The notes under the pieces were generated by a model. The model had not been told where the DNA came from and did no database searches. It saw nothing but the letters and a program-made list of their open reading frames with translations. DNA of 64,000 bases, taken from NCBI GenBank assembly GCA_964472415.1, contig CAYYLC010000002.1, positions 96,470-160,469 of the forward strand. The letters run 5' to 3'. Below, piece by piece: positions 18,528-38,740 of this stretch; within the stretch, counting starts at the first letter, position 1, and every line of letters begins with the position of its first letter. Source of the stretch: an uncultured Gammaproteobacteria bacterium (GTDB lineage Bacteria > Patescibacteriota > Microgenomatia > Levybacterales > GWA1-39-11). The translations under genes and the position numbers were made by a program.

Positions 18528-18689
18528 CTATACCGTTTTAGCTTCATTTCTCACGTTTTCTCCCGGCTTCCACTCACACATAGGACACGCTCTCATAACT
18601 CCTTGTTGAATTTTTATAACATCAGACTCTGATGCTTCCCACTGGCAACTTTTGCAAATTATTTTGTAGCACACTTTACAACCATTCAT
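18528..18689 (-). CDS. Putative small zinc-ribbon protein
   Basis: MNGCKVCYKIICKSCQW...ACPMCEW has four CxxC pairs. Start 5 nt after the upstream CDS stop. The long track ORF 18528..18812 overlaps the upstream gene. Confidence 0.3.
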   Translation of the reverse strand: MNGCKVCYKIICKSCQWEASESDVIKIQQGVMRACPMCEWKPGENVRNEAKTV

Positions 18690-18693
18690 AGCT

Positions 18694-19836: not shown

Positions 19837-20375
19837 ATAGTCTCTGCCTTATCTTCTCCATGATTGACATATCTACTCATCGTAAAAAACAAATCAGACA
19901 ATCGGTTTACATATTGCACCACGTCACCGTCTACTCTCTCTTTTTTAATAAGTGCTACAAGCTTTCTTTCTGCCCTTCTACTAACTGCACGTGCAAGCTG
20001 TAGATGTGCACCAACAAGCGATCCGCCCGGGAGAATAAAATTCTCTAACACAGGAAGCTTTTCTGTCATTTCATCAATTTGGGCCTCTAAATCTATCGTG
20101 TGCTCTGATAAATGCAGCACTAATTCTTTATTTGCTGGATTTGCAAGATATGATCCGATACAAAATAAATCATTTTGGATTATTATTATAATCTCCAGAA
20201 AATGCCGCGCGTATTTTCTATTCACCAAACCAAGCTCTGCCGCAATCACTCCTAGTAACGCATTTAATTCATCAATCGTTCCATAACTTTCCACCCGCCT
20301 ACTGTCCTTCCAAATTCGAACGCCGCTCCCCAACGAAGTCCGGCCTTTGTCCCCCTTTTTTGTATAAATTGCCAT
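19821..20375 (-). CDS. PduO-type ATP:cob(I)alamin adenosyltransferase
   Basis: MAIYTKKGDKGRTSL...ESYGTIDELNALLG N-terminal signature of PduO/MMAB. Start trimmed to the Met preceded by a GGGGAGG RBS. Confidence 0.75.
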   Translation of the reverse strand: MAIYTKKGDKGRTSLGSGVRIWKDSRRVESYGTIDELNALLGVIAAELGLVNRKYARHFLEIIIIIQNDLFCIGSYLANPANKELVLHLSEHTIDLEAQIDEMTEKLPVLENFILPGGSLVGAHLQLARAVSRRAERKLVALIKKERVDGDVVQYVNRLSDLFFTMSRYVNHGEDKAETIWKKR

Positions 20376-20533
20376 AAAAAAAACCTCCCCATTACTCGAG
20401 AAGGTCACAAAAATTTGTGCTTGCTCGAGCAAAAATAGTTAATTAGTTTTCCGTCTGTACGGTAGCGGCACTGAGAGGGAATTTTCGCTTCATTGTAAAA
20501 CGCGAGTCACCCTACTTACCTAAATTAACTAAA
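20376..20533 (-). promoter_or_regulatory. Structured intergenic leader/terminator region with nested palindromes
   Basis: Perfect 12-nt palindrome TTGCTCGAGCAA (20421-20432), a second CTCGAG at 20395-20400, and an inner CACAAA/TTTGTG inverted repeat. On the minus strand the stem is followed by a GGGGAGG RBS and a U-run. Confidence 0.3.
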
Positions 20534-22918
20534 CTAACATTCAGCATGACCACATGCATAGCATTTGGCACAGCCTTCTTCATGTACAAAACTTGCAGAT
20601 CCACACTCCGGACAAATATCTCCGTGAGCAACTTCTTCAGAAATTGGTGAAATCATCTGTGCTGTAGATTGCATGCCTCCTGATTCTCCAAGTGGCATAT
20701 CTACTGGGTTTGAAGATTGTTTTTTTAATGCACCATTTCCATTCCCACTTGCCTGTTTTCCATCTGGATATTTATCTTCAATTCTTCCATTCACCTTGAA
20801 TTCATACACTTCAGCAAGAGTTTTTGCGACTGCGTCTGGAAGAGACCTCACTCTATTTTCTCCAAACCCTACACTTCGCTGCCCACCTATTCCGATAAGC
20901 TGCGCAACAATTTGCCGCATACGTTCACGATGCTCGATAGGGCTCTGCATCCGGAGAACGAGAGAGATTACGCGTCCTAAAGCCTCCGCCATCGCCGACA
21001 CATCAGATCCTGATTTTCCCATTGTCATAAAAAGCTCAAATGGATTCCCATTTTCATCCTGATTTATTGTTACAAAAGTATTCCCGAGTGGTGTTTTCTT
21101 CTCTACAGTAAACCCCTGCAACATCGATGGTCGTTTCAGAATCGGCTGCTTTTTTACCTCTTCTTCTTGCTTTTTCTCATCAACACGCTCCAGGACTCCT
21201 TGGCGAGATCCATCTCGCATATAGGTAATTCCTTTCAGTCCCATATCATAAGCAAGCATGTAGAGTGTTTTTACATCTTCAATAGTATGGGCATTCGGCG
21301 CATTTACAGTTTTTGAGATTGATGAATCGATATATTTTTGCGCGACAGCCTGCACCTTTGCATGTTCAATTGGCGTTAGGTCATTTGCAGAAACGAAGTA
21401 CTCAGGAATCTCTCTTTCTGGATTTGCCTTTTTCCACTCCTCAAATAATGGATGATATATTGTCTCTTCTCCACCGCGCCATCTCCTTTTGAAAACGAAT
21501 TCATATACTGGTTCAATGCCTGACGACACTCCAGAAACAAGGCTCGTAGTGCCAGTTGGCGCAATAGTAAGCAATACTGCATTACGGATTCCTTGTGCTT
21601 CAATTTTTTCTCTAATTTTCTTCGGGAGTGCTTTTATATGATATCCTTGGAGGTATTTATCTTTCTCAAATTTTGGGAACGAGCCCTTTTCTTTTGCAAT
21701 ATCACTTGACGCTTCATACGCACTATCTCTCAATGTTTTAAATATCTTTTCAATCTCCCCCTGCGCCTCTTCGCTCCCATACCGAAGCTCAAGCTTAATT
21801 AGTGTATCTGCAAGACCCATGATCCCCAATCCGGTTCTCCTAATTTCCTTCGCACATTTCTCGTTCTCTTTGAAAAAATAATACGTATCATCAATAACAT
21901 TATCCAAAAGCCTCATAGCAACTTTTACGTCTTGTGAAAAGCTTTCGTAATCAAACTTTCGATCTTTTACGTATTGTGACAAATTCATCGCACCCAAATT
22001 ACACACTGCCCATCCTGATAACGGCTGCTCTCCACACGGATTTGTTGCAATAAGCTTTTCAAAATACCATGTGTTTGACTGCTTGTTTGAGCGCTCGAGA
22101 AAGTGGAGTCCAGGTTCGGCACTCTTCCACGCTGCTGTACAAATTTTGTCCCACAACTCACGAGCTTTTACTGTTTTATATACTTTTACTTCTTTTCCCA
22201 ACTCTCTCCATGAACTCAAGTCTCCATCCCACTTCTCATCATAATCCGGATCAGTAAGATCTGGATACAGCAAATCCCAATCACCATCTTCTTTCACCGC
22301 TTTCATAAATCCATCTGATACACAAACCGATAAATTTGCACCATTTATCTTTGTAAGATCCTCTTTTACTGTAATAAACTCTTCTACATCTGGATGCCAA
22401 TCCCACAACATAAGCATCGTTGCACCACGACGAGTCCCCCCTTGTTGCACCACGTCATGCGTTGCATAAGAGAACAGCCCCGCCCAGGTGACAGGGCCAG
22501 ACGAGGTGCCATTCACTTTCTTAACCCGGGCGCCTCTGGGACGCAAAGACGAAAGATTAAGTCCAACTCCACCAGACCTACTCTGAATTTCAACTAATTG
22601 CTTCAGGCTGTCAATAATACCTTCTCGGGAATCTTTCGGGGATGGAATAACAAAACAATTAAAATAAGTTACTTCGTACTCAGTTCCTGCACCAGAGAGG
22701 ATGCGCCCTCCAGGGACAAATTTAAAATCGGCAAGGACATCATAAAACTTTACCTCCCATCGCTCTCTATCTTTTGCCTTCTCTTGACTGGCAATACCTC
22801 GAGCAACGCGTCGCCACATCTGTTCAGGAGTAGTCTCGAGCAAGCTTCCATCCTTATCTTTAAGGGCGTATCTATCTAAAAATACTTTTTTTCGAATTCC
22901 GTCTAGCTGTGTATCCAT
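20534..22918 (-). CDS. nrdJ: Adenosylcobalamin-dependent ribonucleotide reductase, class II
   Basis: 794 aa. NPCGEQPL active-site region. C-terminal zinc-ribbon tail CPECGSASFVHEEGCAKCYACGHAEC. Immediately downstream of nrdR. Confidence 0.7.
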   Translation of the reverse strand: MDTQLDGIRKKVFLDRYALKDKDGSLLETTPEQMWRRVARGIASQEKAKDRERWEVKFYDVLADFKFVPGGRILSGAGTEYEVTYFNCFVIPSPKDSREGIIDSLKQLVEIQSRSGGVGLNLSSLRPRGARVKKVNGTSSGPVTWAGLFSYATHDVVQQGGTRRGATMLMLWDWHPDVEEFITVKEDLTKINGANLSVCVSDGFMKAVKEDGDWDLLYPDLTDPDYDEKWDGDLSSWRELGKEVKVYKTVKARELWDKICTAAWKSAEPGLHFLERSNKQSNTWYFEKLIATNPCGEQPLSGWAVCNLGAMNLSQYVKDRKFDYESFSQDVKVAMRLLDNVIDDTYYFFKENEKCAKEIRRTGLGIMGLADTLIKLELRYGSEEAQGEIEKIFKTLRDSAYEASSDIAKEKGSFPKFEKDKYLQGYHIKALPKKIREKIEAQGIRNAVLLTIAPTGTTSLVSGVSSGIEPVYEFVFKRRWRGGEETIYHPLFEEWKKANPEREIPEYFVSANDLTPIEHAKVQAVAQKYIDSSISKTVNAPNAHTIEDVKTLYMLAYDMGLKGITYMRDGSRQGVLERVDEKKQEEEVKKQPILKRPSMLQGFTVEKKTPLGNTFVTINQDENGNPFELFMTMGKSGSDVSAMAEALGRVISLVLRMQSPIEHRERMRQIVAQLIGIGGQRSVGFGENRVRSLPDAVAKTLAEVYEFKVNGRIEDKYPDGKQASGNGNGALKKQSSNPVDMPLGESGGMQSTAQMISPISEEVAHGDICPECGSASFVHEEGCAKCYACGHAEC

Positions 22919-22919
22919 A

Positions 22920-23372
22920 TTATTTTTTGATTAATTTTTTAACTTCTTTCTCAAAATCTTCAACATCCACAAAATGCTTAAAAACGCTGGCAAATCGAAT
23001 GTAGGCAACCTTATCAAGTTTTTTGAGCCTCTGTGCAACGGCCTGCCCAATTTTTGAACTTTCTATCTCGACTGACTCTCTCCCGCGTAAATCTCGTTCT
23101 ACCGCATCTACTATATCTTCTACGTGCTCTGGGGTTACGGTGGTCTTTTCTACAGACTTTAAAATCCCTCCTTTTAGCTTTTCACGATTAAATTGTTCAG
23201 CCTTACTGCCTTTCTTCCTCACAATCAACGTCACATTCTCCACGCGCTCATAGGTCGTAAAACGCTTCCGACACGAACAACAAAGTCTTCGTCTTCGGAT
23301 ATTGTTTCGTTCATCAGAAACTCGAGTCTCGACTACTTCGGTTTGATCGCTGTTACAGTATGGACAATGCAT
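22920..23372 (-). CDS. nrdR: Transcriptional repressor NrdR
   Basis: MHCPYCNSDQTEVVETRVSDERNNIRRRRLCCSCRKRFTTYERVE zinc ribbon plus ATP cone. Confidence 0.85.
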   Translation of the reverse strand: MHCPYCNSDQTEVVETRVSDERNNIRRRRLCCSCRKRFTTYERVENVTLIVRKKGSKAEQFNREKLKGGILKSVEKTTVTPEHVEDIVDAVERDLRGRESVEIESSKIGQAVAQRLKKLDKVAYIRFASVFKHFVDVEDFEKEVKKLIKK

Positions 23373-23469
23373 ATTAAAAATTAAAAAGGGTTGTAATTGC
23401 AGCAGAAATATTATAAAAGTCTAGCAATTCCTTCTGCCACTTTCTTACTCACCGCAACTTGTAAAAGAA

Positions 23470-23508
23470 CTGTATTTAGTGTCGCAATCCATCGTAGTAC
23501 ACTAAATC
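23470..23508. promoter_or_regulatory. 9-bp perfect inverted repeat ATTTAGTGT-N16-ACACTAAAT upstream of nrdR (NrdR-box-like)
   Basis: Seen directly, ~100-135 nt upstream of the nrdR start. Each half resembles the acaCwAtATaTwGtgt NrdR-box half-site. Confidence 0.3.
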
Positions 23509-23649
23509 GGCTCCGTCAACTATTATTTTCTATATCAAAACTGAGCAAAGTATTATTTGAACGTGGGCAATTTTATAAAAAAATTTTCTGCTTAACCTTG
23601 TACTTTTTCTGTACAAAACAAACGGATCTCCTTGTCTCTATAGCTTAAT

Positions 23650-24210
23650 TTAATTTACCAATTTCTCAAACTCTTCGAGGCGCTCCGACTCAAGATCCAC
23701 TCTATTCTCCAAACTTTCTGAGATGTGAGGGACAAGTTGTCGTGAAACAACCTGTTGATGCTTTTTCACAGAAGTATGGAGAGATCCTTGCATTGAATGA
23801 ATATCTCTGCCTTTTTCTTTTGCACGATCAAGCGCTAAGATCGCCTCGTGAAAATAATTATTACTTTTTGAAAGTGTATCCACTGCCAATTCTTCTTTCC
23901 CTTTTTCTACTAAAAGTACTGCTGCATAGATTCGCTTGTCAGAAGTGAGGAGGTTAAATTCGGCGCGTTTAATCGGGTCAGTTATTAAAAAACTTACAAC
24001 CCTATCTCTTATAGTTTTTAAAAAGTAAAGCGGATTATCTGGAAGCATGCCCGGATAAGGCAACTCATACTGTACAAATATCTCAGCAGAATCTGAGGCA
24101 CTTTCGGGCTCTGAATGATCGTGTCCTGGATGCGAAAACACAAAACCAACTGAAAAGGAGAAAAATAATAGCGTAAGAAACGAAATAAAACTAGCCCTAA
24201 CCATGTTCAC
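23650..24210 (-). CDS. Secreted hypothetical protein
   Basis: N-terminal signal peptide MNMVRASFISFLTLLFFSFSVGFVFS. Acidic helical remainder. Confidence 0.45.
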   Translation of the reverse strand: MNMVRASFISFLTLLFFSFSVGFVFSHPGHDHSEPESASDSAEIFVQYELPYPGMLPDNPLYFLKTIRDRVVSFLITDPIKRAEFNLLTSDKRIYAAVLLVEKGKEELAVDTLSKSNNYFHEAILALDRAKEKGRDIHSMQGSLHTSVKKHQQVVSRQLVPHISESLENRVDLESERLEEFEKLVN

Positions 24211-24306: not shown

Positions 24307-26442
24307 ATGAAAAAGGCGGTTATACTATTCGCGCTTTTTATCAGCGCACTCTTTTATCTTACGAGGGGAAATATCTCCTTTGCCCAATCATATGCTGATC
24401 AAGTTGCGACAGCATCCTCCAACACTGGTAGCCCGCAAACGCTTCCTCTGAACACGAACCCTGATGTGCCTCAAAATCTCTCAACGTATACACAAAGTGT
24501 TTTTATCGAGCTACTGGGCACTGCATCGTGTTTTTTGGGCGGGAAAAATATTATATATGGAGACACGAAATGCCTCGGAATAGATCCTGAGACAAAAAAA
24601 CTTACCTATGTAGAGGATTCCGGAGGTCTCACCGGCATGATGGGAGACATGATCGCCTATACATTTTCTATCCCAGCGTCTTCGTCTGACTATGTGAGAT
24701 ATATTGCGGGTAATTTCGGAATCGCACAAGACACAACCGCCCAGGAAGCTGAAGGGGAAGTAGGCCTCACAAAAGGAGCCGGATTTGACCAGCTCAGACC
24801 GATCCTGCCACTCTGGACCACCATGAGAAACCTCACCTACCTTATGTTTGTGATTGTATTTATCATCCTCGGACTGGGAATCATGTTCCGCCTTCAAATA
24901 GACCCGCGGGCGGTTATGACTATCCAAAGCCAGATCCCGAAAATTGTTATCGCACTCGTTCTAATCACGTTCTCGTATGCCATCGCTGGATTTTTTGTCG
25001 ACATGATGTACCTCTCGCTCTACCTTATTATTGATATCTTTAGCGCTCATGGCATTGAAAAAACCGCATCACTTGCTGGAAATCCACTGGAAGCAGTAGG
25101 CGGAGTTGGCGGCATCGGTGGAATTTCGTGGGACGCCTCAAAAGGAGTCGCAGGAGTTATGAGCAACCTTTTTGATGGAAATACTTTCGCAGAAGTGATT
25201 CGATTTATTATTAATTCAGTCGCCGGAACGCTTTTGGGTGGTGCCATCGGCATGGTCGGGGGTCCCGTAGGAATGATCGTAGGAGGATTGATAGGCGGCA
25301 TTGGAGGAAATCTTCTAGGATTTATTCCTGGCTTAGGAGATCCGTTCACGCTTATTATTGGAGGGGTTGCCTGGCTTATTATCGTCATCGCGATGCTTAC
25401 CGCGCTCTTTCGACTCTGGTTTATCCTGATAAAAACATACATATTTATTCTTGTAAATATTATATTTGCGCCATTTTATATTTTATTTGGGCTCTTCCCC
25501 GGAAGCTCGCTCTCATTTGGCGGATGGGTCCGCTCATTAGTATCAAATTTAGCGGCATTTCCAGTTGTGCTGATGCTTTTTACGCTCGGGAAGGCGCTGC
25601 AGGATGGATTTATTGAGAGTCCTGGCGGATTCACTCCACCCTATGTCGGAGACCCAGGAGACATGAAGATATTTGCAGGACTCATCGGTCTGGGGATTAT
25701 TTTACTCGCACCAGAGGCAGTAAATATGACCAAGTCTATCTTTAAGGCTCCAGACTTCAAGTTTGGCGGTGCGATCGGACAGCCGCTCGGAACAGGACAA
25801 AAGATTGTCGGTAAGACACTGAGCGGAACCAAGAATGCCCTCTGGCATACAAATCCGTACACGAATGAGCCAAGCAGATTTAAGGCCGCAGTAAAAGAAC
25901 AATTCGGCGCAGGAACTGACAAGATTCCCGGCGTACGCAAGGTAAAGGATAAGTTTAATCAAAGATTTCCTTCATATAAAGCTCGACAGCAAGCAAGGGC
26001 AGATACAGCAGCAAAAAGAACCCAGGCAATAGAAAGAGAGTCTGAAAGGCTGAAAACAGAACATCCAGACTGGGGTACAGATCAAATAAGAGAAGATGCT
26101 GAGCGAAGAGTTAGTGAGAATGAGAAAAAAGAACAAGCAGAACAAAAAAACAAAAGCCTCGTGAGAAGAACTCTCCGAAAGGTCATAAGAAGAGGAGAAG
26201 GCGCTCAGCAAGGCGAAGACGAGACAACAACGGCTCCACCCCCATCAGGGCATCAACCTTCCGCCTCACCACATGCATGGAATAAGGAAGATCTTGATCG
26301 ATCAGTTGAAGAAGAATTTAAAAAACGGACAGCTGGTCAACCATACCTTAGCGCCACCGATAAAACACAGCTCCGCATAAATATCCGGGAAGAATTAATA
26401 AAGCGTGGACCAGACACTGACGACACTAGTGGAACCTCCTAA
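24307..26442 (+). CDS. VirB6/TrbL-like polytopic membrane protein (putative T4SS channel component)
   Basis: Signal peptide, ~170-aa exodomain, at least 6 TM helices with glycine-zipper runs (GGAIGMVGGPVGMIVGGLIGGIGGNLLG), and a long charged C-terminal tail, as in ConG/TcpH/TrbL. Confidence 0.45.
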   Translation: MKKAVILFALFISALFYLTRGNISFAQSYADQVATASSNTGSPQTLPLNTNPDVPQNLSTYTQSVFIELLGTASCFLGGKNIIYGDTKCLGIDPETKKLTYVEDSGGLTGMMGDMIAYTFSIPASSSDYVRYIAGNFGIAQDTTAQEAEGEVGLTKGAGFDQLRPILPLWTTMRNLTYLMFVIVFIILGLGIMFRLQIDPRAVMTIQSQIPKIVIALVLITFSYAIAGFFVDMMYLSLYLIIDIFSAHGIEKTASLAGNPLEAVGGVGGIGGISWDASKGVAGVMSNLFDGNTFAEVIRFIINSVAGTLLGGAIGMVGGPVGMIVGGLIGGIGGNLLGFIPGLGDPFTLIIGGVAWLIIVIAMLTALFRLWFILIKTYIFILVNIIFAPFYILFGLFPGSSLSFGGWVRSLVSNLAAFPVVLMLFTLGKALQDGFIESPGGFTPPYVGDPGDMKIFAGLIGLGIILLAPEAVNMTKSIFKAPDFKFGGAIGQPLGTGQKIVGKTLSGTKNALWHTNPYTNEPSRFKAAVKEQFGAGTDKIPGVRKVKDKFNQRFPSYKARQQARADTAAKRTQAIERESERLKTEHPDWGTDQIREDAERRVSENEKKEQAEQKNKSLVRRTLRKVIRRGEGAQQGEDETTTAPPPSGHQPSASPHAWNKEDLDRSVEEEFKKRTAGQPYLSATDKTQLRINIREELIKRGPDTDDTSGTS

Positions 26443-26516: not shown

Positions 26517-29500
26517 TTAGTCGAACAGGTCATCAAACACATCATCGATAAATATCATAAATGCCGCAGGAAGAACCTCTACTGCTATGTCACCCATGCT
26601 ATGAAGCGCATCCTCCCGGAATAAGTGCCACCGCGTAGTATTTGAGTGCTTCCTGATCCACTCAATATCTTCTTCAGAGAAAAACTGAGAATTTGGGATT
26701 TCAATCTCTTTTCCAGTTGCTGGATCCTCTATATATTGTGGCATAGACCGAAGCGCCTGATAAAATTTTCTTATCGTATGCGCATCCCACCGATCATCAA
26801 CGCTCGCCCTATTCCGGTGCGCCTTGAGCTGCGCTGCAAGCCCGGCCCGGCAGACATTTTTTAAAATTCTTGTTCGCGCATCCTGAGAGTTAAGATATCC
26901 TGCAAACGTTCCATGTTTTTCTTTTGGATTATACTCACCATCCCCTGTCCAAGCCCTTTTTTCTTTTTCATTTCCATCTTCATCTGCTGCCTTATACTTT
27001 AGTTTCCCTGCATACCAATCACGTCGAATAGAACCGATCACTACATCTCCGAACATCGCTTCTGCAAGATACATATCTTTATACTCATATTTTTCGCTTC
27101 CGTCTTTTACCGTACCGTCTTTATTAAATTCCACCGCAGTTCGCACTCTCATGCGCGTTAAAGCTCCATAATTTATCGCGTTGTTTGAAGAAAACGCATA
27201 TCGTCTTTTTTTAATAAATGTATCTTTTACGATTTCCTCAAATTTTGCCCTATCAAATTTCAAAACGCCCCAGTCATTTCGCTTTATGATTTCGTTAAAT
27301 TTGATGTCCTCTGTATCTAACACATCATGCCACACTTCTGACTGACGCTTAATACCGTTTGCTGCCCAGTCAGACTGTGTAAATCGAGGAAATCGCAGTA
27401 CATCGTATAACGCATCTTTCTGCTGCACGAGCCGCTCCTTCAAAGCTTTTTGTTCATCAGTTAAATTTTCATCCTTCGGCAAGCTATAGAGCTGAATATT
27501 TACCTTGTGAATATTGTCAAATACTTCCTGCACTGACTCGCCTGACTCTGTTCGTATCGCAAGCCACATATCAGGAGATAGCATTCGAAATATCTGCATA
27601 TCCTCAGGATTTCCGATAGGACCCGATGTTCTGGAGCCAGATTGACGCTCTCGATAGTACTGCATATACATTTTCGTCCATGCGTCATATCCTCGATAGT
27701 TCGTATCATTTCGCGCAGCAACTCCACTCCACCGTTGCTCCGACCAGGAGTTAATTTCTGCCCATTCCAAATTAATTCGTGACAGTTTTCGGTATTCCTC
27801 CACTGATAAATCTTGCCCATGCCTCTTTTTAAACTTTTCATATTGAGCCTTATCAGATCCTGTATGAAAACCCACAATTTTTGCAGCGGTTTGTTTTACA
27901 ATTTCTCGTACCAACACCTCACTCGTCTCTTCAGGGTTTGCCGATGGGAAAAAATTCAAATATTTTATAAGCGCTTTATCACTCGTTAATTTCCCATTTT
28001 CATCAAAAATAACTGTCCTGATTTTTGTTTGGGGGTCTATGTGATAAATCTTTTCACCTTCAAACCGATAATTTCCGTATTCGGTAAGCTCTTCGTCAAA
28101 ATCCATCCCCTTTATTGCCCGCACTGCATCACGAAAACCTTTTGCTGTATACAAAAGCGCATCAGGGGGCAATATGTTTCGTAAATTTTTCTCGTCTGAT
28201 AAATTTCTATATATTTGATTCATTATAAGAAGCGAGTCTCCTACTCTATTGTCTGCCTTTCCATCAGTATCCCTACTATACTCATCTGCCATCCGCAACA
28301 TATTTGCAAGCGTAGAACCAGATGTGTGATCATTCCTCGAATTTATTTCAACCAGCCTGTCAAACAAGTTAGAGTCGCTTGTCATCACCTGCTTATACGC
28401 CAAATCATTATTGCGCCGCACACCAAATAACCACGCCTCATTAATAACCTCGTTATACAAATGCTCTAATACCTGACCAGTATTTGGATCGCTGAAATAT
28501 CGCTGCTTGTTGTATTTCATTTCTACCAAATTAACTGGCCGAAAGAGTGTCTGAATAGCCACTTTGTCTAACGGACTCATGGGGTCATTCGGATTATCAT
28601 AATGAAGCTCAAGCATTTTATTTCTTACCCATTTCAAAAAGTTTTCTTCCTGAAAAATCACTTTTTTAACCTCCATTTTTTCTCGCCTTCCAGTTTCAGG
28701 ATTTATCTTCTCGACCTCTTCTGTTTCATCTTCAGAGCGAGTAAAAAGCGGATACGGCCCATTCGGAGACCAAATTTTCGCATCATCAGTCGCAATAATC
28801 CACAGTGCAAGCTCGCGGATATTTCCCGGCTCGCGCCCAAATATACTTTCATCAGCAAAATCTATATCCTCGTCAAAACTAAAATTCATCCCTCTTCTGT
28901 TTATCTTCTCTCCTCGCGCTAACCTTTTTGCGGCATCTTTCTCTTCTACACTTAGCTGCCTCTCCATCTGCTCTGTTGCTCTATTAAACAATCTAGACAT
29001 AAATTCACTCACATTCTGCTTGTAGCTATACACATTGTCATCATCATTGAGGCCTTCCCACCTTGTTAACTCCTCCTGAATATCTAGTGGATTCTGCCCG
29101 TAAGCTAAATTCGCCAAGTATCGGACATAGTCATCTTTAACATATGCAGCTTTAAAACGCTTAAACGCATCTTCATCATCCTCTGGAATATTTTGAATAC
29201 CCTCTAAAAATTCCTCATAACGCTTTTTTTCCATATTTGGATCTCCATCTGCTCCGCCCTCTATTGGAGGACTCCCTCGCTCAGCAAGGCTTCGAATTGC
29301 CTCTATCTCGTCTTCTGTGAGGTTCCTTTTCTTTTTTATTTCCTCAACCACCTTTTCCCATGCCCTTTTCGCGGCCTTAACACGATCAGGATCTGGAATT
29401 TTCGGAGCATCTTCTTTTTCTTTTCGCTCGATATCTCGCACTAATGCGGATAATCCTTTTTTCACATTGAGAGCCTCCCCGCTCGTAATTTTTCTCAATC

Positions 29501-30347
29501 GTTCAGAATATTCATCTCTATCTGGAATATCTCCTAATAACAGCGAAAGCATCAACTCCCCAGCTTTTCCACTCATTACCTGTCTTAAAGATTCCGCATC
29601 GATTTTTTCTGTTGAAGTGAGAAACGCATCGAATCGCTTTGGTTCATTTACGATTTTTTCAATCATCTGTATCTGACTCTCAAATCGCTTTGCACTTTCC
29701 GTAGTGCTTGAAAGATTTTCGCCCCGCATTGCTCTACCAAATTCCTGTTCAGTAAGTTTTCGACCAAATGCGTGCTCAAAAACAACCCGTGACGCCTGTG
29801 CCTCCTCAGCTGATAATCCTCTCTTTTTTCGCAGTGCCACAATCGCAGAAACGTCCTGCAATAATTCTTTGTCTTCAGATCTTGCCTCACCGAGCCGCTC
29901 TTCGACGACAACCTCATTTAAATACGCTGAAAAATTTCTGGCCCAGTTATCCGAAACCATCCCAAACTGCACACCTTTAGTAAGATCACCCTGGACACCT
30001 TCTAGAAATTTGTCGTCAATCTTATTTTGCCTCCCCGCAATTTGGACTTTCTTTGCTAATTCTTCTAAATAGGAGTTGTCTTTGAATCTATTTATGTCAA
30101 ATCTTGCAAACCCTCCTGCGGGCGCATCATTACCCATAAATCCAGGCTCTCTTTCGTCCCCTTTTTGCCGTTGAGATTCAACGCGTGATCTTGTTTCTCC
30201 CGCTTTATCCTGATGCTTTCCCCTCCTCTGTACAATTTCGGCGATTCTCGCTTCAGGATTTTTACTAACTGATCGTTCTGATTCTGCTTCCATAATGCTC
30301 CTACTTACAGGATATGTCAGCTCGGATGTATGTGTCAATCGCTCCAT
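26517..30347 (-). CDS. Giant hypothetical protein (1276 aa)
   Basis: Uninterrupted 3.8-kb ORF, highly charged, no TM or recognisable catalytic motif. Confidence 0.6.
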   Translation of the reverse strand: MERLTHTSELTYPVSRSIMEAESERSVSKNPEARIAEIVQRRGKHQDKAGETRSRVESQRQKGDEREPGFMGNDAPAGGFARFDINRFKDNSYLEELAKKVQIAGRQNKIDDKFLEGVQGDLTKGVQFGMVSDNWARNFSAYLNEVVVEERLGEARSEDKELLQDVSAIVALRKKRGLSAEEAQASRVVFEHAFGRKLTEQEFGRAMRGENLSSTTESAKRFESQIQMIEKIVNEPKRFDAFLTSTEKIDAESLRQVMSGKAGELMLSLLLGDIPDRDEYSERLRKITSGEALNVKKGLSALVRDIERKEKEDAPKIPDPDRVKAAKRAWEKVVEEIKKKRNLTEDEIEAIRSLAERGSPPIEGGADGDPNMEKKRYEEFLEGIQNIPEDDEDAFKRFKAAYVKDDYVRYLANLAYGQNPLDIQEELTRWEGLNDDDNVYSYKQNVSEFMSRLFNRATEQMERQLSVEEKDAAKRLARGEKINRRGMNFSFDEDIDFADESIFGREPGNIRELALWIIATDDAKIWSPNGPYPLFTRSEDETEEVEKINPETGRREKMEVKKVIFQEENFLKWVRNKMLELHYDNPNDPMSPLDKVAIQTLFRPVNLVEMKYNKQRYFSDPNTGQVLEHLYNEVINEAWLFGVRRNNDLAYKQVMTSDSNLFDRLVEINSRNDHTSGSTLANMLRMADEYSRDTDGKADNRVGDSLLIMNQIYRNLSDEKNLRNILPPDALLYTAKGFRDAVRAIKGMDFDEELTEYGNYRFEGEKIYHIDPQTKIRTVIFDENGKLTSDKALIKYLNFFPSANPEETSEVLVREIVKQTAAKIVGFHTGSDKAQYEKFKKRHGQDLSVEEYRKLSRINLEWAEINSWSEQRWSGVAARNDTNYRGYDAWTKMYMQYYRERQSGSRTSGPIGNPEDMQIFRMLSPDMWLAIRTESGESVQEVFDNIHKVNIQLYSLPKDENLTDEQKALKERLVQQKDALYDVLRFPRFTQSDWAANGIKRQSEVWHDVLDTEDIKFNEIIKRNDWGVLKFDRAKFEEIVKDTFIKKRRYAFSSNNAINYGALTRMRVRTAVEFNKDGTVKDGSEKYEYKDMYLAEAMFGDVVIGSIRRDWYAGKLKYKAADEDGNEKEKRAWTGDGEYNPKEKHGTFAGYLNSQDARTRILKNVCRAGLAAQLKAHRNRASVDDRWDAHTIRKFYQALRSMPQYIEDPATGKEIEIPNSQFFSEEDIEWIRKHSNTTRWHLFREDALHSMGDIAVEVLPAAFMIFIDDVFDDLFD

Positions 30348-30438
30348 AATGCCACCACTATACCGCGTTGTCCTGCGTTATGCCTGACAGCAATGTAACA
30401 CTTGCTTTACAGCAACTTTTCAGTGGTAATATATATAC

Positions 30439-31758
30439 ATGTCGCTTACTCCATTAAAATATTTTGAGTCGTTGTATCCTGAAAACACTCGAGAAAAAGA
30501 AATCCGAGAATATCTCGATTTTTTAAAAAAAGGGCTCTCAGTACAGGTTATCGGACTTCCCGGAATAGGAAAAAATAATTTACTTCGCCTGCTTGCATAC
30601 AATATCGATGCCAGGCGATATCACCTAAAAGAATATGAAAAATTTATGCATTTTGTGTACATCGACTCTGCTGAGGCGAAAAACAGGCCACAGATAGACC
30701 TTATTAAATTGATTCTTTCATCAATCGCATTTTCTCTAGGCGAGAGGAGTATGCTTGATGAATCACTAAAAATAAACACCCTCCTCCAAGAAGGTGTCAG
30801 CCTGAATGACGAATTTCTTATATTCCAGTATCTAAAAAAAGCGATAGATTACCTTACAATAGAAAAAAAGCTTTCCGTAGTTCTACTATTTGATAGATTT
30901 GATACGATCGCACCAAATCTTACTGAGGATTTCTTCTCAAACCTAAAAACGCTTCGCAATAACTCAAAATATCGATTTGGCGTTGTGTTTTCTCTCAAAA
31001 GACCGCTTGAAGAAACTGTTGATCCGCGCCTCATTTCAGATTTTTCCGATATCATTGCAAAGAACGAAATTTATGCATCGCTCTCTGACCCCATTGCGCT
31101 CAAATTCCGCACAGAATATATAGAAAAAGCTGCCAGAAATGCGCTCTCAAAAGATCTCCGCGAGAAAATCATTACGCTCACCGGCGGTCATGCAAAACTC
31201 ACCAAGCTCGCCTTTGAAAAAATCGTTTCTGAAAATAAACCCATAGATGATCTAAAGAAATACCTATTCAACCAACCTACTATAATAAGTGCACTTAATG
31301 AGCTCTGGGAGAGCTTGCTACCGAGCGAAAAATCTGCACTAAAAACCAGCTCAGCTCCCGATGACTCATATCTCGTAAAATCAGGCTTAGTTAAAAAAGG
31401 AAAAATTGTAATCCCACTCTTCTCAGAATTTATCGAAGGAAAAGATATCGAGACAAGCGAAAAAATAACATATGACAGCATAAAAAATGAAATAATAAAA
31501 GGAGACACTTCTATTTCGCATCTACTCTCTTCTTCTGAATTTAAACTCTTGAAATTTTTTATTGAGCACAACGAAAAAATTCTTACCAAAGATGAAATTA
31601 TCTCTATTATCTGGTCTGATCAAAGAACGCAAGAAGGAGTTACTGACCAAGCGCTTGACCAAGTCCTCTATAGGCTTCGGAAAAAAATTGAAAGAAACCC
31701 TAGTAATCCTCAATTTATCCATACTATAAAAGGCACGGGATATAAATTTACGAGTTAA
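30439..31758 (+). CDS. P-loop ATPase fused to C-terminal OmpR/PhoB-type winged-helix DNA-binding domain
   Basis: Walker A VIGLPGIGKNNLLRLL and Walker B-like VVLLFDRFD. C-terminus LTKDEIISIIW...ALDQVLYRLRKKIE...IHTIKGTGYKF matches trans_reg_C. Confidence 0.6.
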   Translation: MSLTPLKYFESLYPENTREKEIREYLDFLKKGLSVQVIGLPGIGKNNLLRLLAYNIDARRYHLKEYEKFMHFVYIDSAEAKNRPQIDLIKLILSSIAFSLGERSMLDESLKINTLLQEGVSLNDEFLIFQYLKKAIDYLTIEKKLSVVLLFDRFDTIAPNLTEDFFSNLKTLRNNSKYRFGVVFSLKRPLEETVDPRLISDFSDIIAKNEIYASLSDPIALKFRTEYIEKAARNALSKDLREKIITLTGGHAKLTKLAFEKIVSENKPIDDLKKYLFNQPTIISALNELWESLLPSEKSALKTSSAPDDSYLVKSGLVKKGKIVIPLFSEFIEGKDIETSEKITYDSIKNEIIKGDTSISHLLSSSEFKLLKFFIEHNEKILTKDEIISIIWSDQRTQEGVTDQALDQVLYRLRKKIERNPSNPQFIHTIKGTGYKFTS

Positions 31759-31798: not shown

Positions 31799-33268
31799 AT
31801 GAAACGATTCCTCGCACTACTGGGTGGATTTTTATTTTCCTTTACACTCTGTGTCGCATTTCTTCCTCCTCAAAGCTCCGAAGCGCAACAAGAACCAATC
31901 TCCCCAGAGACGTCAGAAAATACTGAGACATCAGAAGACACACCTACCACAAACTGTGGTGGTGAAAACTGGACTATTGACCCCTGCCCACTAGAAATTG
32001 ACGGAAATACAGAGAAAGTTACGATCAAATTTTTTGGTCTTGATGAAGACGTAGACTGGCGCACCTGCTCTATCCGAAAAGGGTGCGATTTGGCACGAGA
32101 CAAAGCAAAAGAAATAGGGGCATTTGAAAATGGAGTTTTGACCATTGTAGTCTGTGGCGCAAACGAAGGAAAACTAAAAGAAGTAGGGGATGAGGGATGT
32201 GGCGATGATGACTACTTTCACGAAGGACGCGTGTATCAGATGGCGCTCTTTGAAGATGAAGAGCAAGAGATAAAAGGACCCATTGCTTCATTTTTTGTAA
32301 ATCACTATTACCCCAAAATAGCCGTTAACAACGGCGCAAGTAGCAATGGCATCCTAGAAGGAGCAAATAGTTTTCTCGAGGTAAAAGTGTTTGGAGACTT
32401 ACGCCGAGGCGGCGGCAATCGCAATAACTATCAAATAGTCGTTGAAGGAAAGGATAACTATGGAAACACCTACAAGCAAGATGAATGCATAGAGGTTAAA
32501 AGTACAGAGGGCAATTCAGCATTTTTTTCCAGGAATCAAGATAAGGAGGGCGAAACTGGAAGATCCCTCAATAAAGGAAAATACGTTATAAAAGTAAATG
32601 AACAGGTCAATGAAGGCACACTCGGCAAGCTCAAGACACTGGCAGACAAGTGTAACGGTGGCTTCACCTACTGGCATATCAACATCGAAATTGATGAAGT
32701 CGGAAATATCATCGGCACCCCCCCCTTCTGCTCCCCAAGCGAAACCACTGGTATATCAATTGATAATGATGTATGCATTCAAGATCCAAATATAAGCGAC
32801 GTTGGAAAATATAAAGATTTTATCGATTCGCTCTTTGAAGGCAGTGAAGTTCCGCTTCCGTGCGCTGACACTCCAGAGAATGTAGCAGGCAAGGGATTTT
32901 GTGGCATGGTAGATACCGCAATCGGCACCATCCCCACAAATTTCCAGGGCTTTGTAAATAGACTCTTTACGATCGTTCTTTCTGTCGCAGGCGTATCAGC
33001 ACTTGGCCTCATCATCTATGGCGGGTATACTTATATGACCTCTCGAGGCGACACTGAAAAAATCAAACATGGGCGAGAAATCATCACAGCTGCCATTATC
33101 GGACTCTTGTTTATCATATTTTCTTTTGTAATACTACAAGTAATAACCGGAGAGATTTTACGAATTCCAGGATTTAACAATCCAGAATATAGCCCAGAGA
33201 CTGGAGTGGATAGGGTTGATGATGGAACGGTGCCAGGAAGCGAACTGCCACCAGAACTATTTCAATAA
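31799..33268 (+). CDS. VirB2/TrbC-like pilin-domain protein with ~400-aa N-terminal extracellular extension
   Basis: Signal peptide, Cys-containing exodomain, then C-terminal two-TM module LIIYGGYTYMTSRGDTEKIKHGREIITAAIIGLLFIIF that shares the signature of the three downstream pilin-like ORFs. Confidence 0.5.
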   Translation: MKRFLALLGGFLFSFTLCVAFLPPQSSEAQQEPISPETSENTETSEDTPTTNCGGENWTIDPCPLEIDGNTEKVTIKFFGLDEDVDWRTCSIRKGCDLARDKAKEIGAFENGVLTIVVCGANEGKLKEVGDEGCGDDDYFHEGRVYQMALFEDEEQEIKGPIASFFVNHYYPKIAVNNGASSNGILEGANSFLEVKVFGDLRRGGGNRNNYQIVVEGKDNYGNTYKQDECIEVKSTEGNSAFFSRNQDKEGETGRSLNKGKYVIKVNEQVNEGTLGKLKTLADKCNGGFTYWHINIEIDEVGNIIGTPPFCSPSETTGISIDNDVCIQDPNISDVGKYKDFIDSLFEGSEVPLPCADTPENVAGKGFCGMVDTAIGTIPTNFQGFVNRLFTIVLSVAGVSALGLIIYGGYTYMTSRGDTEKIKHGREIITAAIIGLLFIIFSFVILQVITGEILRIPGFNNPEYSPETGVDRVDDGTVPGSELPPELFQ

Positions 33269-33270
33269 TT

Positions 33271-33603
33271 ATGCAAGAATATATAGCACAACTGAGAGTT
33301 CCGGGAGCCAACGGAACTCCAATCGAGATACGACCACCAGAAAATGTCCCTCAAGGAGGAGAAGGAATGTTAGAAAAGATTCTCTCACTCGGTATCCAGG
33401 TCTTTCTCATAGTGGTAATCATCGCAGCACTCTTCTATCTCGTATGGGCCGGCATCAGATGGGCGCAGTCAGGAGGAGATTCTTCAAAGCTTCAGGCAGC
33501 ACGGCAACAAATCGTATTTGCAATTATCGGAATCGTTGTTGCATTTCTTGGATTTGCCATCATAACATTCATGGGTGGAATTTTCGGCGTAAGCCTTCTA
33601 TAA
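33271..33603 (+). CDS. T4SS pilin-like protein (VirB2/TrbC-like family)
   Basis: TM1 - WAGIRWAQSGGDSSKLQAARQQIVFAIIGIVVAFLGF - TM2. Paralogous motif x-[ST]-[SQ]-GGD-x-x-K-x-x-x-A[RK]-x-x-I-x-x-A-I-[IV]-G. Confidence 0.55.
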   Translation: MQEYIAQLRVPGANGTPIEIRPPENVPQGGEGMLEKILSLGIQVFLIVVIIAALFYLVWAGIRWAQSGGDSSKLQAARQQIVFAIIGIVVAFLGFAIITFMGGIFGVSLL

Positions 33604-33612
33604 AACTCCTTA

Positions 33613-34131
33613 TTGACAAGAATTATGAAAGCTGTAACAATAGTTAAAAGCATTATGAAAAGACTAGTTGCCCTTCTCGCTGCACCGCTTACACTTATTG
33701 CCCCTCAACTTGTCTATGCGCAAGAAAGTGATCTGGATCTTTGTCCTGAAACTCAATTTAACATCCTTTGCAAAATCGAAACAGGAGATTTTGGTGGAAT
33801 CCTCGGAACCGCAATTGTAATTATGTTTATCGTTGCAATCATCATCGCGCTCCTCTGGCTTATATTAGGAGGCATTAAGTGGATCACTTCTGGAGGAGAC
33901 TCTAGTAAAGTAGAAGGCGCACGAAATCAGATCATCGCAGCAGTTATCGGGCTCGTCGTTGTGTTTCTTTCGTACTTTATCCTGAATTTCGTGTTAACAC
34001 TCTTTGGGATCCCTGGGGTAGGCGGCTTAAAAATCCCAACAATTAAGCCGATTGTTGAGGGAAGTAGCGCAGGAGGTTCAGTTAATGATGGCATTGATAC
34101 TATAAGAGATCGAGTTGAAAATCAACGGTAA
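33613..34131 (+). CDS. T4SS pilin-like protein (VirB2/TrbC-like family), paralog
   Basis: Signal peptide, then ILGGIKWITSGGDSSKVEGARNQIIAAVIGLVVVFL. Confidence 0.55.
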   Translation: MTRIMKAVTIVKSIMKRLVALLAAPLTLIAPQLVYAQESDLDLCPETQFNILCKIETGDFGGILGTAIVIMFIVAIIIALLWLILGGIKWITSGGDSSKVEGARNQIIAAVIGLVVVFLSYFILNFVLTLFGIPGVGGLKIPTIKPIVEGSSAGGSVNDGIDTIRDRVENQR

Positions 34132-34152
34132 TAAAACCATCTCCTCAAAATT

Positions 34153-34455
34153 ATGCCTTGGGACTCATGTATAGATCCATCCACCGGAATAGCGACTCTT
34201 CGCTGCATTCCAGTTGTTATAAAAAACCTCGTAAACTGGGCGCTCATTTTTGCGGGAGTTGTCGCACTCTTTCTCATCGTCTACGCAGGATTTAAATTCG
34301 TAACCAGTCAAGGAGACTCCACACAGGTAGACAGTGCAAAAAAAACGCTTACCTATGCAATCGTCGGACTACTTCTGATCCTACTCTCTTTCGCAATTCT
34401 AAACCTAATAGCAGGCCTTACTGGAGTGGATCAAATCACAAACCCTGCATTCTAA
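34153..34455 (+). CDS. T4SS pilin-like protein (VirB2/TrbC-like family), paralog
   Basis: YAGFKFVTSQGDSTQVDSAKKTLTYAIVGLLLILL. Confidence 0.55.
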   Translation: MPWDSCIDPSTGIATLRCIPVVIKNLVNWALIFAGVVALFLIVYAGFKFVTSQGDSTQVDSAKKTLTYAIVGLLLILLSFAILNLIAGLTGVDQITNPAF

Positions 34456-34498
34456 ACTCATTGACAAAATAACATCTTCTAGTATATTCTCTTATAGT

Positions 34499-34807
34499 AT
34501 GGATACGACAGCTCAAATCCCTGAACAGGAAAAAAATGCGCTTTATAAAAAAATCGCTGATATCATGCTCACAGAATTAAAGACTGGTTCACTCTCCTCT
34601 GAAGATGTAGAGGACATTTCCTTCTTTACGCTTGAAAACCTAGATAACGCCACAAATTCGAGCTATCTTGAGGCATTCACCGAAGAACTGGCCAAGCGTT
34701 GGCCCAGCTTTACCCCACTCGCACACCCTATTAAACAGCAGGAATCGATTCAAAAAGATCAAAAAAATATCGAGGCAATAACTAGCGAAATAAAAAACTT
34801 ATCATAA
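34499..34807 (+). CDS. Small acidic hypothetical protein
   Basis: 102-aa ORF, stop 1 nt before the next CDS (coupled). Confidence 0.4.
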   Translation: MDTTAQIPEQEKNALYKKIADIMLTELKTGSLSSEDVEDISFFTLENLDNATNSSYLEAFTEELAKRWPSFTPLAHPIKQQESIQKDQKNIEAITSEIKNLS

Positions 34808-34808
34808 C

Positions 34809-36851
34809 ATGCCGGACGCACCAGCAGAAATACAACCAACAGACATACTTCTTGACAGAGAACATGATGCAACACTCAGTATTCAGATGGGAGGCAACAA
34901 CGCACAAAGGGAAATGGAGGCTGCAAACGCTAGATCAACTCGAATTAATGAAATTGTCCAGAATAACCCCGACAACCTCCGCGCAGTATTTGTATCAGAA
35001 TCCAGTCCGCCGGATTATACGGAAGCGGATTTCGACGCTACCATTGGAAAGCTTAAATCCACCGAAGGAAACGCTAACACTGATTCCCGCATCAAAACAT
35101 TAGAAGAGGACATAGAACCACTCGCCGCCTATCTTGAGGCAGTACGGAAATCAAAACTTGAAGGAATTACCCTCGATAAGGCTCTAGGCTCTGATGCAGA
35201 AACTACAAAAAGCAAGGTGGCAGCAACGCTTATACACCGCGGGAGGCTCTTGGAAAAATTTCCAGAGATCGCTGAGGCATACCGCAATGAAGTTGATCGG
35301 CTCAAGTTTGTCGAGCAGCTTATCGCACGAGACCCTCGCTTTGTGAGTGAAATGGCACGAGAGCTTTCAGAAATCCGGGACGAAGCGAAGGAACTAGACG
35401 AAACTACATCTGATCCCAAAAGGCTTTCAGAGCAAAAAACTACGCTCGACGAACTTCAAACGTCTCTGGTAACACAAATTCAGAAAACACTCGAGGATCA
35501 CGGGCTCGATCAAGCCGGACAAGAAGAAATCAAGAATCTAATTGAAATGGGCATGGACCCTCAATCGATTATCGAAATGGCAAAAGTTAACTTAAAACTT
35601 GATCCGACCTTTGAAAGGTATAGCGATCTTAAGGAAGCTTATGACGTGCAGAGAATTGAAAAAGAAACCTATGAGAAGTTAATTGCGGATGAAAAGGCAA
35701 ATACTGACTCAAAGGGCAAGCCAAAAAGGCCTGATGAGATTAAAAGACTTCAGGATCTTCTAATACAGGCAAACGGTCGCATGGAAACAGTACGCAATCA
35801 CATGATGGCTGAGCAGAATGCCTATACATTAAGAACAGAAACTACCAAAGAGGACTTTGAAGGCAAATACCAAAAGCACTTAATAAAAGCCTCCCTCTTA
35901 AGAGAAAATGGCCCTCTTGCAAAACTTATAGAAGCTTCCACAAAAAATCAGTCCAAAATAACAGAACTGGGGTCTCAAATTGAACAAGCTAAATCTAACC
36001 CTGAGAAAGAAGACGCAGAAAAAAAGAAGGCGGAACTTATTAGGCGCCTAGAAGCATCTGTTGACAAAGCCATGGCACAATTTCTCACAAAAAAATACGA
36101 CGACTACCTCTCTCGTCAAAATATCATGGTAGATGCGGCCATAAAAGAGGCTGAGAAAGACAATGAACCCAACATGGCAAACATGACAAGACGACTGCAG
36201 GAAAGTATGGATATATGGAGTCATTTTGATACAGGGACGAGAAAGATAGTCCGCAACCGCACACAGCTTGGCACAGACATAAAAAACCTTGTCACATATG
36301 CCTCCGAAGGACCAGACGGCATACGACGTATGATCGCGGAAAAGGTTGAATTCAAAGAAGACAAAGGCGAACTAAACGATCATCTCGCTGGAGAGTTTGG
36401 CGGAGAGGGCGCCACATACGACTCGCTTTCAGCGTTTGACAAAGCGAAAGTAGATTCTCTAGCTGTTCAGAGGCGAAACGAGTTTGATAGACTCGTTACT
36501 GAACAAGGGGACGCATTTACAAAACGTTTGCTTGCAGAATATGCAGCAAACAGAGGTGTTATAGACAAGCTGACTGAAGTGGGATATCTCTCATTAAATA
36601 ATGACGAAATCAATATACTTAATTCTCAATTCGGACCTCTCATGGACCAAGAACTCTCCCGTACGGGCATTCTTGCAATGCTCAAAGAAAAAGGCATTAA
36701 CATGGGCCCTAAAACAAGACTAACCCTATTCCTCCTCATACTTCTCGGCGGAGCTGCGGCAATTAGCGCGATCGGGGTCGCACCGGCAGCTGTTATGGCT
36801 GGACAAGCAGCAAAAGAAGTAGGAACTGCAACCTGGAAAGGCTGGGCATAA
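34809..36851 (+). CDS. Coiled-coil protein with C-terminal membrane anchor
   Basis: 680 aa, highly charged heptad-rich sequence, single C-terminal TM LTLFLLILLGGAAAISAIGVAPAAV. Confidence 0.5.
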   Translation: MPDAPAEIQPTDILLDREHDATLSIQMGGNNAQREMEAANARSTRINEIVQNNPDNLRAVFVSESSPPDYTEADFDATIGKLKSTEGNANTDSRIKTLEEDIEPLAAYLEAVRKSKLEGITLDKALGSDAETTKSKVAATLIHRGRLLEKFPEIAEAYRNEVDRLKFVEQLIARDPRFVSEMARELSEIRDEAKELDETTSDPKRLSEQKTTLDELQTSLVTQIQKTLEDHGLDQAGQEEIKNLIEMGMDPQSIIEMAKVNLKLDPTFERYSDLKEAYDVQRIEKETYEKLIADEKANTDSKGKPKRPDEIKRLQDLLIQANGRMETVRNHMMAEQNAYTLRTETTKEDFEGKYQKHLIKASLLRENGPLAKLIEASTKNQSKITELGSQIEQAKSNPEKEDAEKKKAELIRRLEASVDKAMAQFLTKKYDDYLSRQNIMVDAAIKEAEKDNEPNMANMTRRLQESMDIWSHFDTGTRKIVRNRTQLGTDIKNLVTYASEGPDGIRRMIAEKVEFKEDKGELNDHLAGEFGGEGATYDSLSAFDKAKVDSLAVQRRNEFDRLVTEQGDAFTKRLLAEYAANRGVIDKLTEVGYLSLNNDEINILNSQFGPLMDQELSRTGILAMLKEKGINMGPKTRLTLFLLILLGGAAAISAIGVAPAAVMAGQAAKEVGTATWKGWA

Positions 36852-36979
36852 ATTATTCTCCTTGCCCCTTTTCACACTACCCTCAAATTATCACATAGTT
36901 TGCACTACTCTGATACGCTTGATTTGAAAATTTTCACGGGATAAGCTGTGTAGGTACGCCAAAGGCGTTATCATTTGTT

Positions 36980-38098: not shown

Positions 38099-38104
38099 CA
38101 ACCT

Positions 38105-38737: not shown

Positions 38738-38740
38738 TTT

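Follow-up and report, generated by a model that had tools for sequence, protein, structure and literature searches.

Patescibacteria, also called the candidate phyla radiation (CPR), account for a large fraction of bacterial diversity and live attached to the cells of a host. A 64,000-nucleotide stretch of contig CAYYLC010000002.1 (assembly GCA_964472415.1, positions 96,470 to 160,469 of the forward strand), hereafter the window, carries the genes of a type IV secretion system (T4SS) and, at the edge of these, a giant gene with coding capacity for 1276 amino acids (aa). We wanted to know what this giant protein is and whether it belongs to the secretion system. As judged from sequence searches, it is a member of a previously unnamed family specific to Patescibacteria, and its gene accompanies the T4SS genes in all loci that we compared. 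The finding is an uncharacterised, conserved addition to the Patescibacteria T4SS locus.

The role of these T4SSs has been called 'completely unknown' (PMC11665869), and they are without any recognised substrate, relaxase or dedicated coupling factor (PMC10633639, PMC11665869, PMC12102498). A phylum-wide survey reported VirB4, TrsD, VirB3/PrgI and VirB2 arrays, with VirB6, VirB8 and VirB1 scarce, relaxases almost absent and extreme divergence in Microgenomatia, and gives no description of the giant protein (PMC12102498). The T4SS cluster of Southlakia epibionticum (SEML1_0006-0019) is essential; coupling and relaxase proteins cannot be recognised in it, and it 'may instead export proteins' (PMC10633639).

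The giant gene and its parts are the following:

26517-30347, minus strand: maximal open reading frame (ORF), ATG start, 1276 codons plus the stop codon at 26517-26519
26520-30293, minus strand: probable main coding sequence, starting at M19 (1258 aa), equal to the Joint Genome Institute (JGI) gene call P0001
28836-30293, minus strand: variable, highly charged N-terminal extension (about residues 19-504), kept only in close relatives
26520-28835, minus strand: conserved C-terminal core (about residues 505-1276), modelled as multi-domain alpha/beta

The original prediction had described a single unbroken ORF for a highly charged 1276-aa protein that lacks transmembrane segments and any recognisable catalytic motif, and this description was confirmed, with corrections, given below, to the term orphan, the start codon and the label VirB6-like. 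The ORF listing and the translation gave one uninterrupted frame (26517-30347, minus strand), the residues D, E, K and R make up 34% of the protein (net charge -29, isoelectric point 5.45), and a Kyte-Doolittle scan detected zero hydrophobic segments. There is no signal peptide either, so any export of the giant protein would require a dedicated system. Neither a motif scan of the 1276-aa protein, in which Walker A, HUH, DEAD and CxxC motifs were not found, nor the library scans described below pointed to a catalytic motif. Internal repeats in the protein and paralogs within the window were not detected. As had also been claimed, the gene is convergent with that at 24307-26442 and divergent from that at 30439-31758 (both plus strand).

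Does the giant protein belong to a known family? The whole protein and five segments of it gave no match in Pfam, NCBIfam, PHROGs or PADLOC, and sequence and profile searches against the PDB returned noise only (E>=0.055). Scanning 36 diverse relatives did not result in any Pfam, NCBIfam or PHROGs domain, and no nuclease, relaxase, helicase or polymerase domain was among them. The Pfam and NCBIfam relaxase models matched neither the giant protein nor its relatives scanned, and the H.H motif of HUH relaxases (MOB F/P/Q/V/H) is absent anywhere in the 1276-aa protein. The hallmarks of type IV coupling proteins (VirD4/TraG/TcpA) are lacking as well: there is no Walker A and no N-terminal membrane anchor, and TrwB_AAD_bind, T4SS-DNA_transf and TraG-D_C gave no match in the giant protein or the 36 relatives. 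Housekeeping homology was not found in the library scans, nor was any mobile-element homology. With zero relatives among 72,556 plasmids, 50,697 phage genomes and the IMG/VR contigs, a plasmid, phage or viral-contig origin was rejected. The source name of one relative, 'phasin', is evidently spurious; the other source names read 'hypothetical protein'.

A word-indexed search identified 7 full-length relatives, about 50% identical and none of them named, and diverse alignments used as query returned the same 7. Scanning reference genomes added seven further loci, with 40-47% identity to the giant protein. Alignment revealed that the N-terminal ~500 aa are weakly conserved and the C-terminal ~770 aa very strongly. 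An exhaustive HMMER search with a profile of this core against 1.84 billion representatives resulted in 254 matching proteins at E<=1e-3, 218 at E<=1e-10. The term orphan, used in the original prediction, is thus apt in that curated libraries hold no annotated relatives, but not for the C-terminal core, which is common to all of these 254 cluster representatives. Family members are 850-1900 aa long, and the variation in length is due to the N-terminal extension, which occupies about 100-800 aa ahead of the core. The core itself is always located at the extreme C-terminus, and the tail beyond it is mostly 0-40 aa long.

Residue conservation was measured in a 124-member alignment, with a threshold of at least 90% of the members. 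The core residues conserved to this extent are N569, W573, R575, L630, R645, Y651, G703, Y713, D718, L722, N798, G875, Y898, G912, F986, R1049, Y1050, R1065 and H1177, with Arg, Tyr, Asn and His predominating. The densest motif of the core reads GAAARNDT..GYDA.TK......YR.KQ....RGG..GNP.

A first AF2 model of the core, based on 7 sequences, was poor (predicted local distance difference test, pLDDT, 59) and was superseded by an AlphaFold model from a 73-sequence alignment, which has a mean pLDDT of 92.5, a predicted template modelling score (pTM) of 0.90 and a pLDDT of at least 90 for 650 of its 781 residues. The model shows a multi-domain alpha/beta core, with a long helix of low confidence at its end. 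Foldseek searches with this model did not give a significant match in the PDB or BFVD, the best PDB hit having an E-value of 1.0 and a template modelling score of about 0.1. As modelled, the core of ~770 aa is therefore without detectable known fold. The structure prediction and domain parsing proposed in the original prediction have thus delivered a confident core model, but not the nuclease, relaxase (HUH) or helicase motif or domain that was to be looked for. The C-terminal end of the window protein is acidic/hydrophobic (...IFIDDVFDDLFD), whereas its close relatives end in ...FKIFYKDIVS; this tail has low model confidence. The translocation signals of known T4SS effectors are C-terminal, Arg-rich for VirB/D4 and an acidic E-block with a hydrophobic residue at -3/-4 for Dot/Icm; Patescibacteria have no defined signal of this kind.

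We then asked how constant the surroundings of the gene are, and compared 16 loci: seven closer ones, and nine distant ones whose family members are 18-22% identical to the giant protein over the full length. The seven closer loci have one gene order, which runs VirB4, TrsD-like, PrgI, a variable segment, four or five pilins, the regulator, the family member, the convergent membrane protein, DUF5667, NrdR, NrdJ and cobalamin adenosyltransferase. The family member adjoins a Trans_reg_C regulator and a T4SS_pilin array in 16/16 loci. In the distant loci, VirB4, TraC-like and PrgI genes were found wherever the contig reaches them, and a convergent gene for a protein of 549-794 aa is located downstream of the family member wherever the contig extends; this gene is homologous to that for the 711-aa protein of the window (31-40% identity by tblastn, loci L009-L015). 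The module of regulator, pilin, family-member and membrane-protein genes is intact despite rearrangement on the nrd side in L009 and L018, and also where the regulator gene is inverted (L013, L014, L017 and L018). In the window, the corresponding features are:

24307-26442, plus strand: polytopic membrane protein of 711 aa with about 8-10 hydrophobic segments, convergent to the giant gene
30439-31758, plus strand: regulator of 439 aa, with a C-terminal Trans_reg_C winged helix (strong match) and N-terminal AAA_16/AAA_35 (weak)
31799-44851, plus strand: T4SS operon-like array downstream of the regulator
31799-34455, plus strand: VirB2-like pilins
34809-36851, plus strand: acidic 680-aa protein, hydrophobic segment at its C-terminal end, encoded between pilins and PrgI
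36980-38098, plus strand: PrgI/VirB3-like
38105-38737, plus strand: TrsD/TraC-like
38741-40999, plus strand: VirB4 (CD1110 family)
42904-44133, plus strand: CHAP hydrolase

The family member, the membrane protein and the regulator, a STAND-like ATPase with a winged helix, form a three-gene module located at the edge of the pilin-PrgI-TrsD-VirB4 operon. The virB4 gene is the 10th gene from the giant gene and hence lies inside the 20-coding-sequence neighbourhood of the phylum-wide survey (PMC12102498). To judge from gene order, the family belongs invariably to the chromosomal T4SS locus of the Microgenomatia type. The link to a secretion system that had been proposed from the window is borne out by this synteny in 16/16 loci, together with a control region shared with the T4SS operon, which is described below. 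In every comparison, the family member has diverged further than any other gene of the locus: identity is 22-37% for its core, as against 42-48% (regulator), 31-40% (membrane protein), 58-78% (VirB4) and 56-71% (NrdJ).

How is the giant gene expressed? Across very divergent members, the annotated N-termini show an apparent peptide M-x-E...(E)LT...Y...M-[ED]. The 'LT' codons are TTGACA in 14 loci, TTGACT in L017 and TTGACG in L013, and a TAnnnT box is present 17-18 nt past this hexamer, independent of the codon register. As controls from the same genes, single-codon usage was observed in 0/10 conserved Leu or Thr columns, and TTGACA encodes only 4 of the 57 other LT dipeptides. The N-terminal 'ELT...Y' peptide was rejected as a protein-level signal; what is constrained here would instead be a promoter, at the DNA level. 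The elements identified at the 5' end are:

30309-30338, minus strand: promoter-like element P2, with TTGACA (30338-30333), an 18-nt spacer and TATCCT (30314-30309)
30298-30302, minus strand: AGGAG, Shine-Dalgarno-like, 4 nt upstream of the M19 ATG (30293-30291)
30357-30362, minus strand: P1 -10-like box, TATAGT here and TAcAAT in relatives, 9 nt before the first ATG
30383-30411, minus strand: three direct repeats with 11-bp phasing, TGTAAAG, TGTTACA and TGTCAGG

P2, which is of the sigma70 type, sits in codons 4-13 of the long ORF, and its TTGACA-18-TATCCT is the best sigma70-like match (10/12 positions) in the 4.3-kb region scanned. In L017, TTGACT-18-TATAAT is followed after 6 nt by ATG, and in L013 TTGACG-17-TATGAT after 9 nt; in both cases the protein begins at the equivalent Met. 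The JGI gene call for the identical protein (P0001, 1258 aa) begins at M19 as well. Considering the promoter inside the 5' end, the AGGAG before M19, the starts in L017 and L013 and the JGI call, the main product most likely starts at M19 and is 1258 aa long. The M-x-E-G motif at M19 is only loosely conserved across the family. An upstream transcript of the leaderless type might also give rise to a longer isoform, because the frame between the first and the second ATG is open in every locus having the first ATG, TTGACA and the second ATG are a multiple of three nt apart in 15/16 loci (36-66 nt), and the first ATG is located 6-9 nt past a P1-type -10-like box across the loci. Columns T84, A85, A87 and T89 of the P1 alignment are invariant in 11 loci. 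The 5' region of the giant gene suggests tandem promoters and, possibly, two protein isoforms.

The phased repeats are located in the 91-bp divergent intergenic region between the giant gene and the regulator gene, a control region in common with the T4SS operon, and are kept in 11 loci as TTGTnAG / TGTnAG / TCAAG. Spacing of the 11-bp type is typical of the binding sites of OmpR/PhoB-family winged-helix proteins, and the repeats are presumably candidate binding sites of the adjacent OmpR/PhoB-type Trans_reg_C regulator. On the opposite strand, 6 nt before its ATG, the regulator has a promoter-like site of its own (TGgTAATAT), whose -35-like TTTACA is overlapped by repeat 1. At the other end of the giant gene, no convincing terminator was found between it and the convergent membrane-protein gene.

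From these observations we infer a functional partnership of the giant protein with the T4SS. The original prediction had proposed a substrate, an effector or a nucleic-acid-handling factor; of these, the substrate or effector role is plausible and the nucleic-acid role improbable. The role that we tentatively favour, at less than even odds, is that of a cytoplasmic, acidic, co-regulated T4SS partner of about 1258 aa that would most likely be the principal translocated substrate. The adjacent regulator would bind the phased repeats, by which the giant gene would be co-regulated with the T4SS operon; the giant protein would then act with the T4SS, most likely as the principal substrate delivered to the host bacterium, where the conserved Arg/Tyr/His/Asn-rich core would bear the activity and the fast-evolving N-terminal region would adapt to the host. 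The reasons for favouring a substrate are that its divergence is the fastest in the locus, that it has a hypervariable extension and no signal peptide, that its gene, outside the apparatus operon, is served by a strong promoter of its own, and that the system is without known cargo. A more far-reaching version, in which the family would be the first identifiable dedicated substrate (effector) of the Patescibacteria T4SS, a protein of novel fold that is injected into the host bacterium and whose variable N-terminal region tracks host range, is doubtful when taken as a whole.

Several points weigh against a translocated substrate. That the giant protein is translocated is something we infer, plausibly, from its gene and surroundings. 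The charge of the C-terminal tail is not conserved (...DDVFDDLFD in the window, ...FKIFYKDIVS in relatives), and a T4SS signal is not readily recognised in it. The compact ~770-aa core (pTM 0.90), the strict single copy and the fixed position would be just as fitting for a machine subunit. Gene order inherited within one class could account for much of the synteny, since nrdR-nrdJ is also syntenic in most loci. Finally, a counterpart is not evident in the T4SS cluster of the well-studied Saccharibacteria system, and the giant protein is thus not universal to Patescibacteria T4SSs.

An adaptor subunit is nearly as likely as a translocated substrate, likewise at less than even odds: like the lineage-specific coupling-complex proteins of other T4SSs, the giant protein would be a cytoplasmic T4SS component that recruits or gates substrates without being exported itself, docking on the cytoplasmic face of the membrane protein and/or on VirB4 or the distant VirD4-like ATPase. 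Such a role would agree with a gene that is strictly single-copy and always paired with a polytopic membrane-protein gene, and with a large compact core that is strongly co-evolving (pLDDT 92.5 from only 73 sequences) and has near-invariant residues. Recognisable VirB6 and VirB8 are scarce in Microgenomatia, so that unrecognised components are expected (PMC12102498), and the VirD4-like coupling protein is encoded 15 kb off (9497-11884). However, the giant protein diverges faster than all other cytoplasmic components of the cluster, family members show a two-fold variation in length, and the gene has its own promoter and is transcribed outside the T4SS operon.

The conserved polar residues of the core are mostly Arg, Tyr, His and Asn (R575, R645, Y651, Y713, N798, Y898, R1049-Y1050, R1065 and H1177), a composition that would be typical of phosphate/nucleic-acid binding sites, and the synteny of the locus extends to nrdR-nrdJ and a ComFC-like gene (DZR_2, phosphoribosyltransferase). 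The family might be a new type of nucleic-acid-handling enzyme that stands in for the missing relaxase or DNA processing, in a locus serving DNA or nucleotide transfer or uptake. We consider this improbable, as the HUH, Walker A and DEAD motifs are absent, none of the 36 diverse members contains a nuclease, relaxase, helicase or polymerase domain, Foldseek did not reveal similarity to any solved nucleic-acid enzyme, and the net charge of -29 is acidic. A poor chance, too, is given to a lineage-specific cytoplasmic protein unrelated to secretion, for instance an origin-proximal chromosome or cell-cycle factor, whose adjacency to the T4SS would merely be inherited gene order. The locus does adjoin dnaA and dnaN, the housekeeping genes nrdR, nrdJ and that for cobalamin adenosyltransferase are also syntenic in most loci, and the sampled loci are apparently all from related Patescibacteria (NrdJ 56-87% identical). 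Yet rearrangement of the nrd side (L009 and L018) has not separated the genes for regulator, pilins, family member and membrane protein, the control region is common with the regulator/T4SS operon, and fast divergence is atypical of housekeeping proteins.

The giant protein was also compared with known systems. The effector CagA of the Helicobacter pylori cag T4SS island is, like the giant protein, more than 1000 aa long, without signal peptide and encoded in a chromosomal T4SS island; neither has sequence relatives whose function is known. Each has its own fold, consists of a structured and a variable part, and evolves fast. The two show no sequence or fold similarity (PDB sequence search and Foldseek), and CagA is variable at its C-terminus and the giant protein at its N-terminus. 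Moreover, CagA translocation has been demonstrated, whereas the giant protein is known from its sequence and a model, and its presumed target is a bacterial host. Coupling-complex and adaptor proteins (DotM/DotN/IcmS-IcmW/LvgA with DotL) resemble the giant protein in being cytoplasmic, confined to one lineage and T4SS-encoded, and generic T4SS profiles miss both. These Dot/Icm-type adaptors are small and act with a neighbouring coupling ATPase, whereas members of the giant family measure 850-1900 aa and have a polytopic membrane protein as genomic partner, with the VirD4-like gene 15 kb away; no homology was found between them. Conjugative relaxases (TraI, MOB families) are also large, cytoplasmic and T4SS-associated, with conserved Tyr and Arg. 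Their HUH motif and relaxase, helicase and primase domains are all absent from the giant protein, and their conserved module is N-terminal instead of C-terminal.

The Saccharibacteria T4SS cluster (SEML1_0006-0019) and the window locus share VirB4, TrsD-like, PrgI, a VirB2-like pilin array and a cell-wall hydrolase, adjoin dnaA/dnaN and have no relaxase (PMC10633639, PMC12102498). The module of regulator, giant protein and membrane protein has not been described for the Saccharibacteria cluster, whose large proteins, a peptidase (0007) and extended VirB6-like membrane proteins (0011 and 0013), are not counterparts of the giant family.

The giant family shows that the published component catalogue of Patescibacteria T4SSs is incomplete. 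The giant family is a concrete, testable candidate for the missing T4SS cargo or component, bound to the T4SS locus of one major class, and the regulatory module, with its ATPase/winged-helix regulator and phased repeats, could reveal when the T4SS is switched on. The effector role, if true, would provide a direct molecular handle on host exploitation by these episymbionts.

The convergent neighbour had been called VirB6-like in the original prediction, and this holds for its topology and position, but not for its sequence. The 711-aa protein, with its about 8-10 hydrophobic segments, exceeds the five hydrophobic helices expected at least of VirB6/TrbL, and it is encoded with the T4SS. TrbL/VirB6 (PF04610) reached only E=1 (9.5 bits) in one scan, 0/9 orthologs matched TrbL at E<=1, and PrgH-type profiles gave no match either. 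VirB6 identity by sequence found no support in these profile scans, and the protein is a VirB6 analogue by position and topology only. It contains two invariant cysteines (C75 and C89) in a conserved non-membrane N-terminal region before the hydrophobic segments; its C-terminal region is poorly conserved, and there is no Pfam family for it.

Two further features of the window lie outside the T4SS array:

9497-11884, plus strand: VirD4-like coupling protein of 795 aa (TrwB_AAD_bind, DUF87, TraG-D_C)
44848-47413, minus strand: dnaN and dnaA, directly after the last gene of the T4SS array

The VirD4-like gene is located about 27 kb from virB4, outside the T4SS operon, and 15 kb from the giant gene. 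The adjacency of dnaN and dnaA places the T4SS locus next to a replication origin, and an origin-proximal position agrees with what has been reported for Patescibacteria T4SSs (PMC12102498). On the other side, the region 17697-24210 is a conserved syntenic block encoding a DUF5667 protein, NrdR, a B12-dependent NrdJ, a cobalamin adenosyltransferase, a 380-aa protein and a ComFC-like protein, the last with double zinc ribbon (DZR_2) and phosphoribosyltransferase domains. These genes have a nucleotide/DNA-uptake character, which might be functionally connected with the T4SS.

The segment between the pilins and PrgI differs between loci. The 680-aa protein of the window is 23% identical to its counterpart in L001 (1394-3281), and no counterpart was detected in most other loci. 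In L001, this segment also carries AbiEii/DUF6922 and 23S_rRNA_IVP genes. Small 23S_rRNA_IVP/Avd-like genes, encoding four-helix bundles, are located directly beside the family member in distant loci, at L009 7302-7682, L015 9518-9874 and 16953-17318, and L018 7516-7887. Because Avd-like genes flank family members in these three loci, we considered a diversity-generating retroelement target, which was rejected: no template/variable (TR/VR) repeat was found and no reverse transcriptase gene was called. In L018, AT-rich arrays of short AAAGTTA-like repeats (5972-6118 and 7462-7924) flank the regulator and the adjacent IVP gene.

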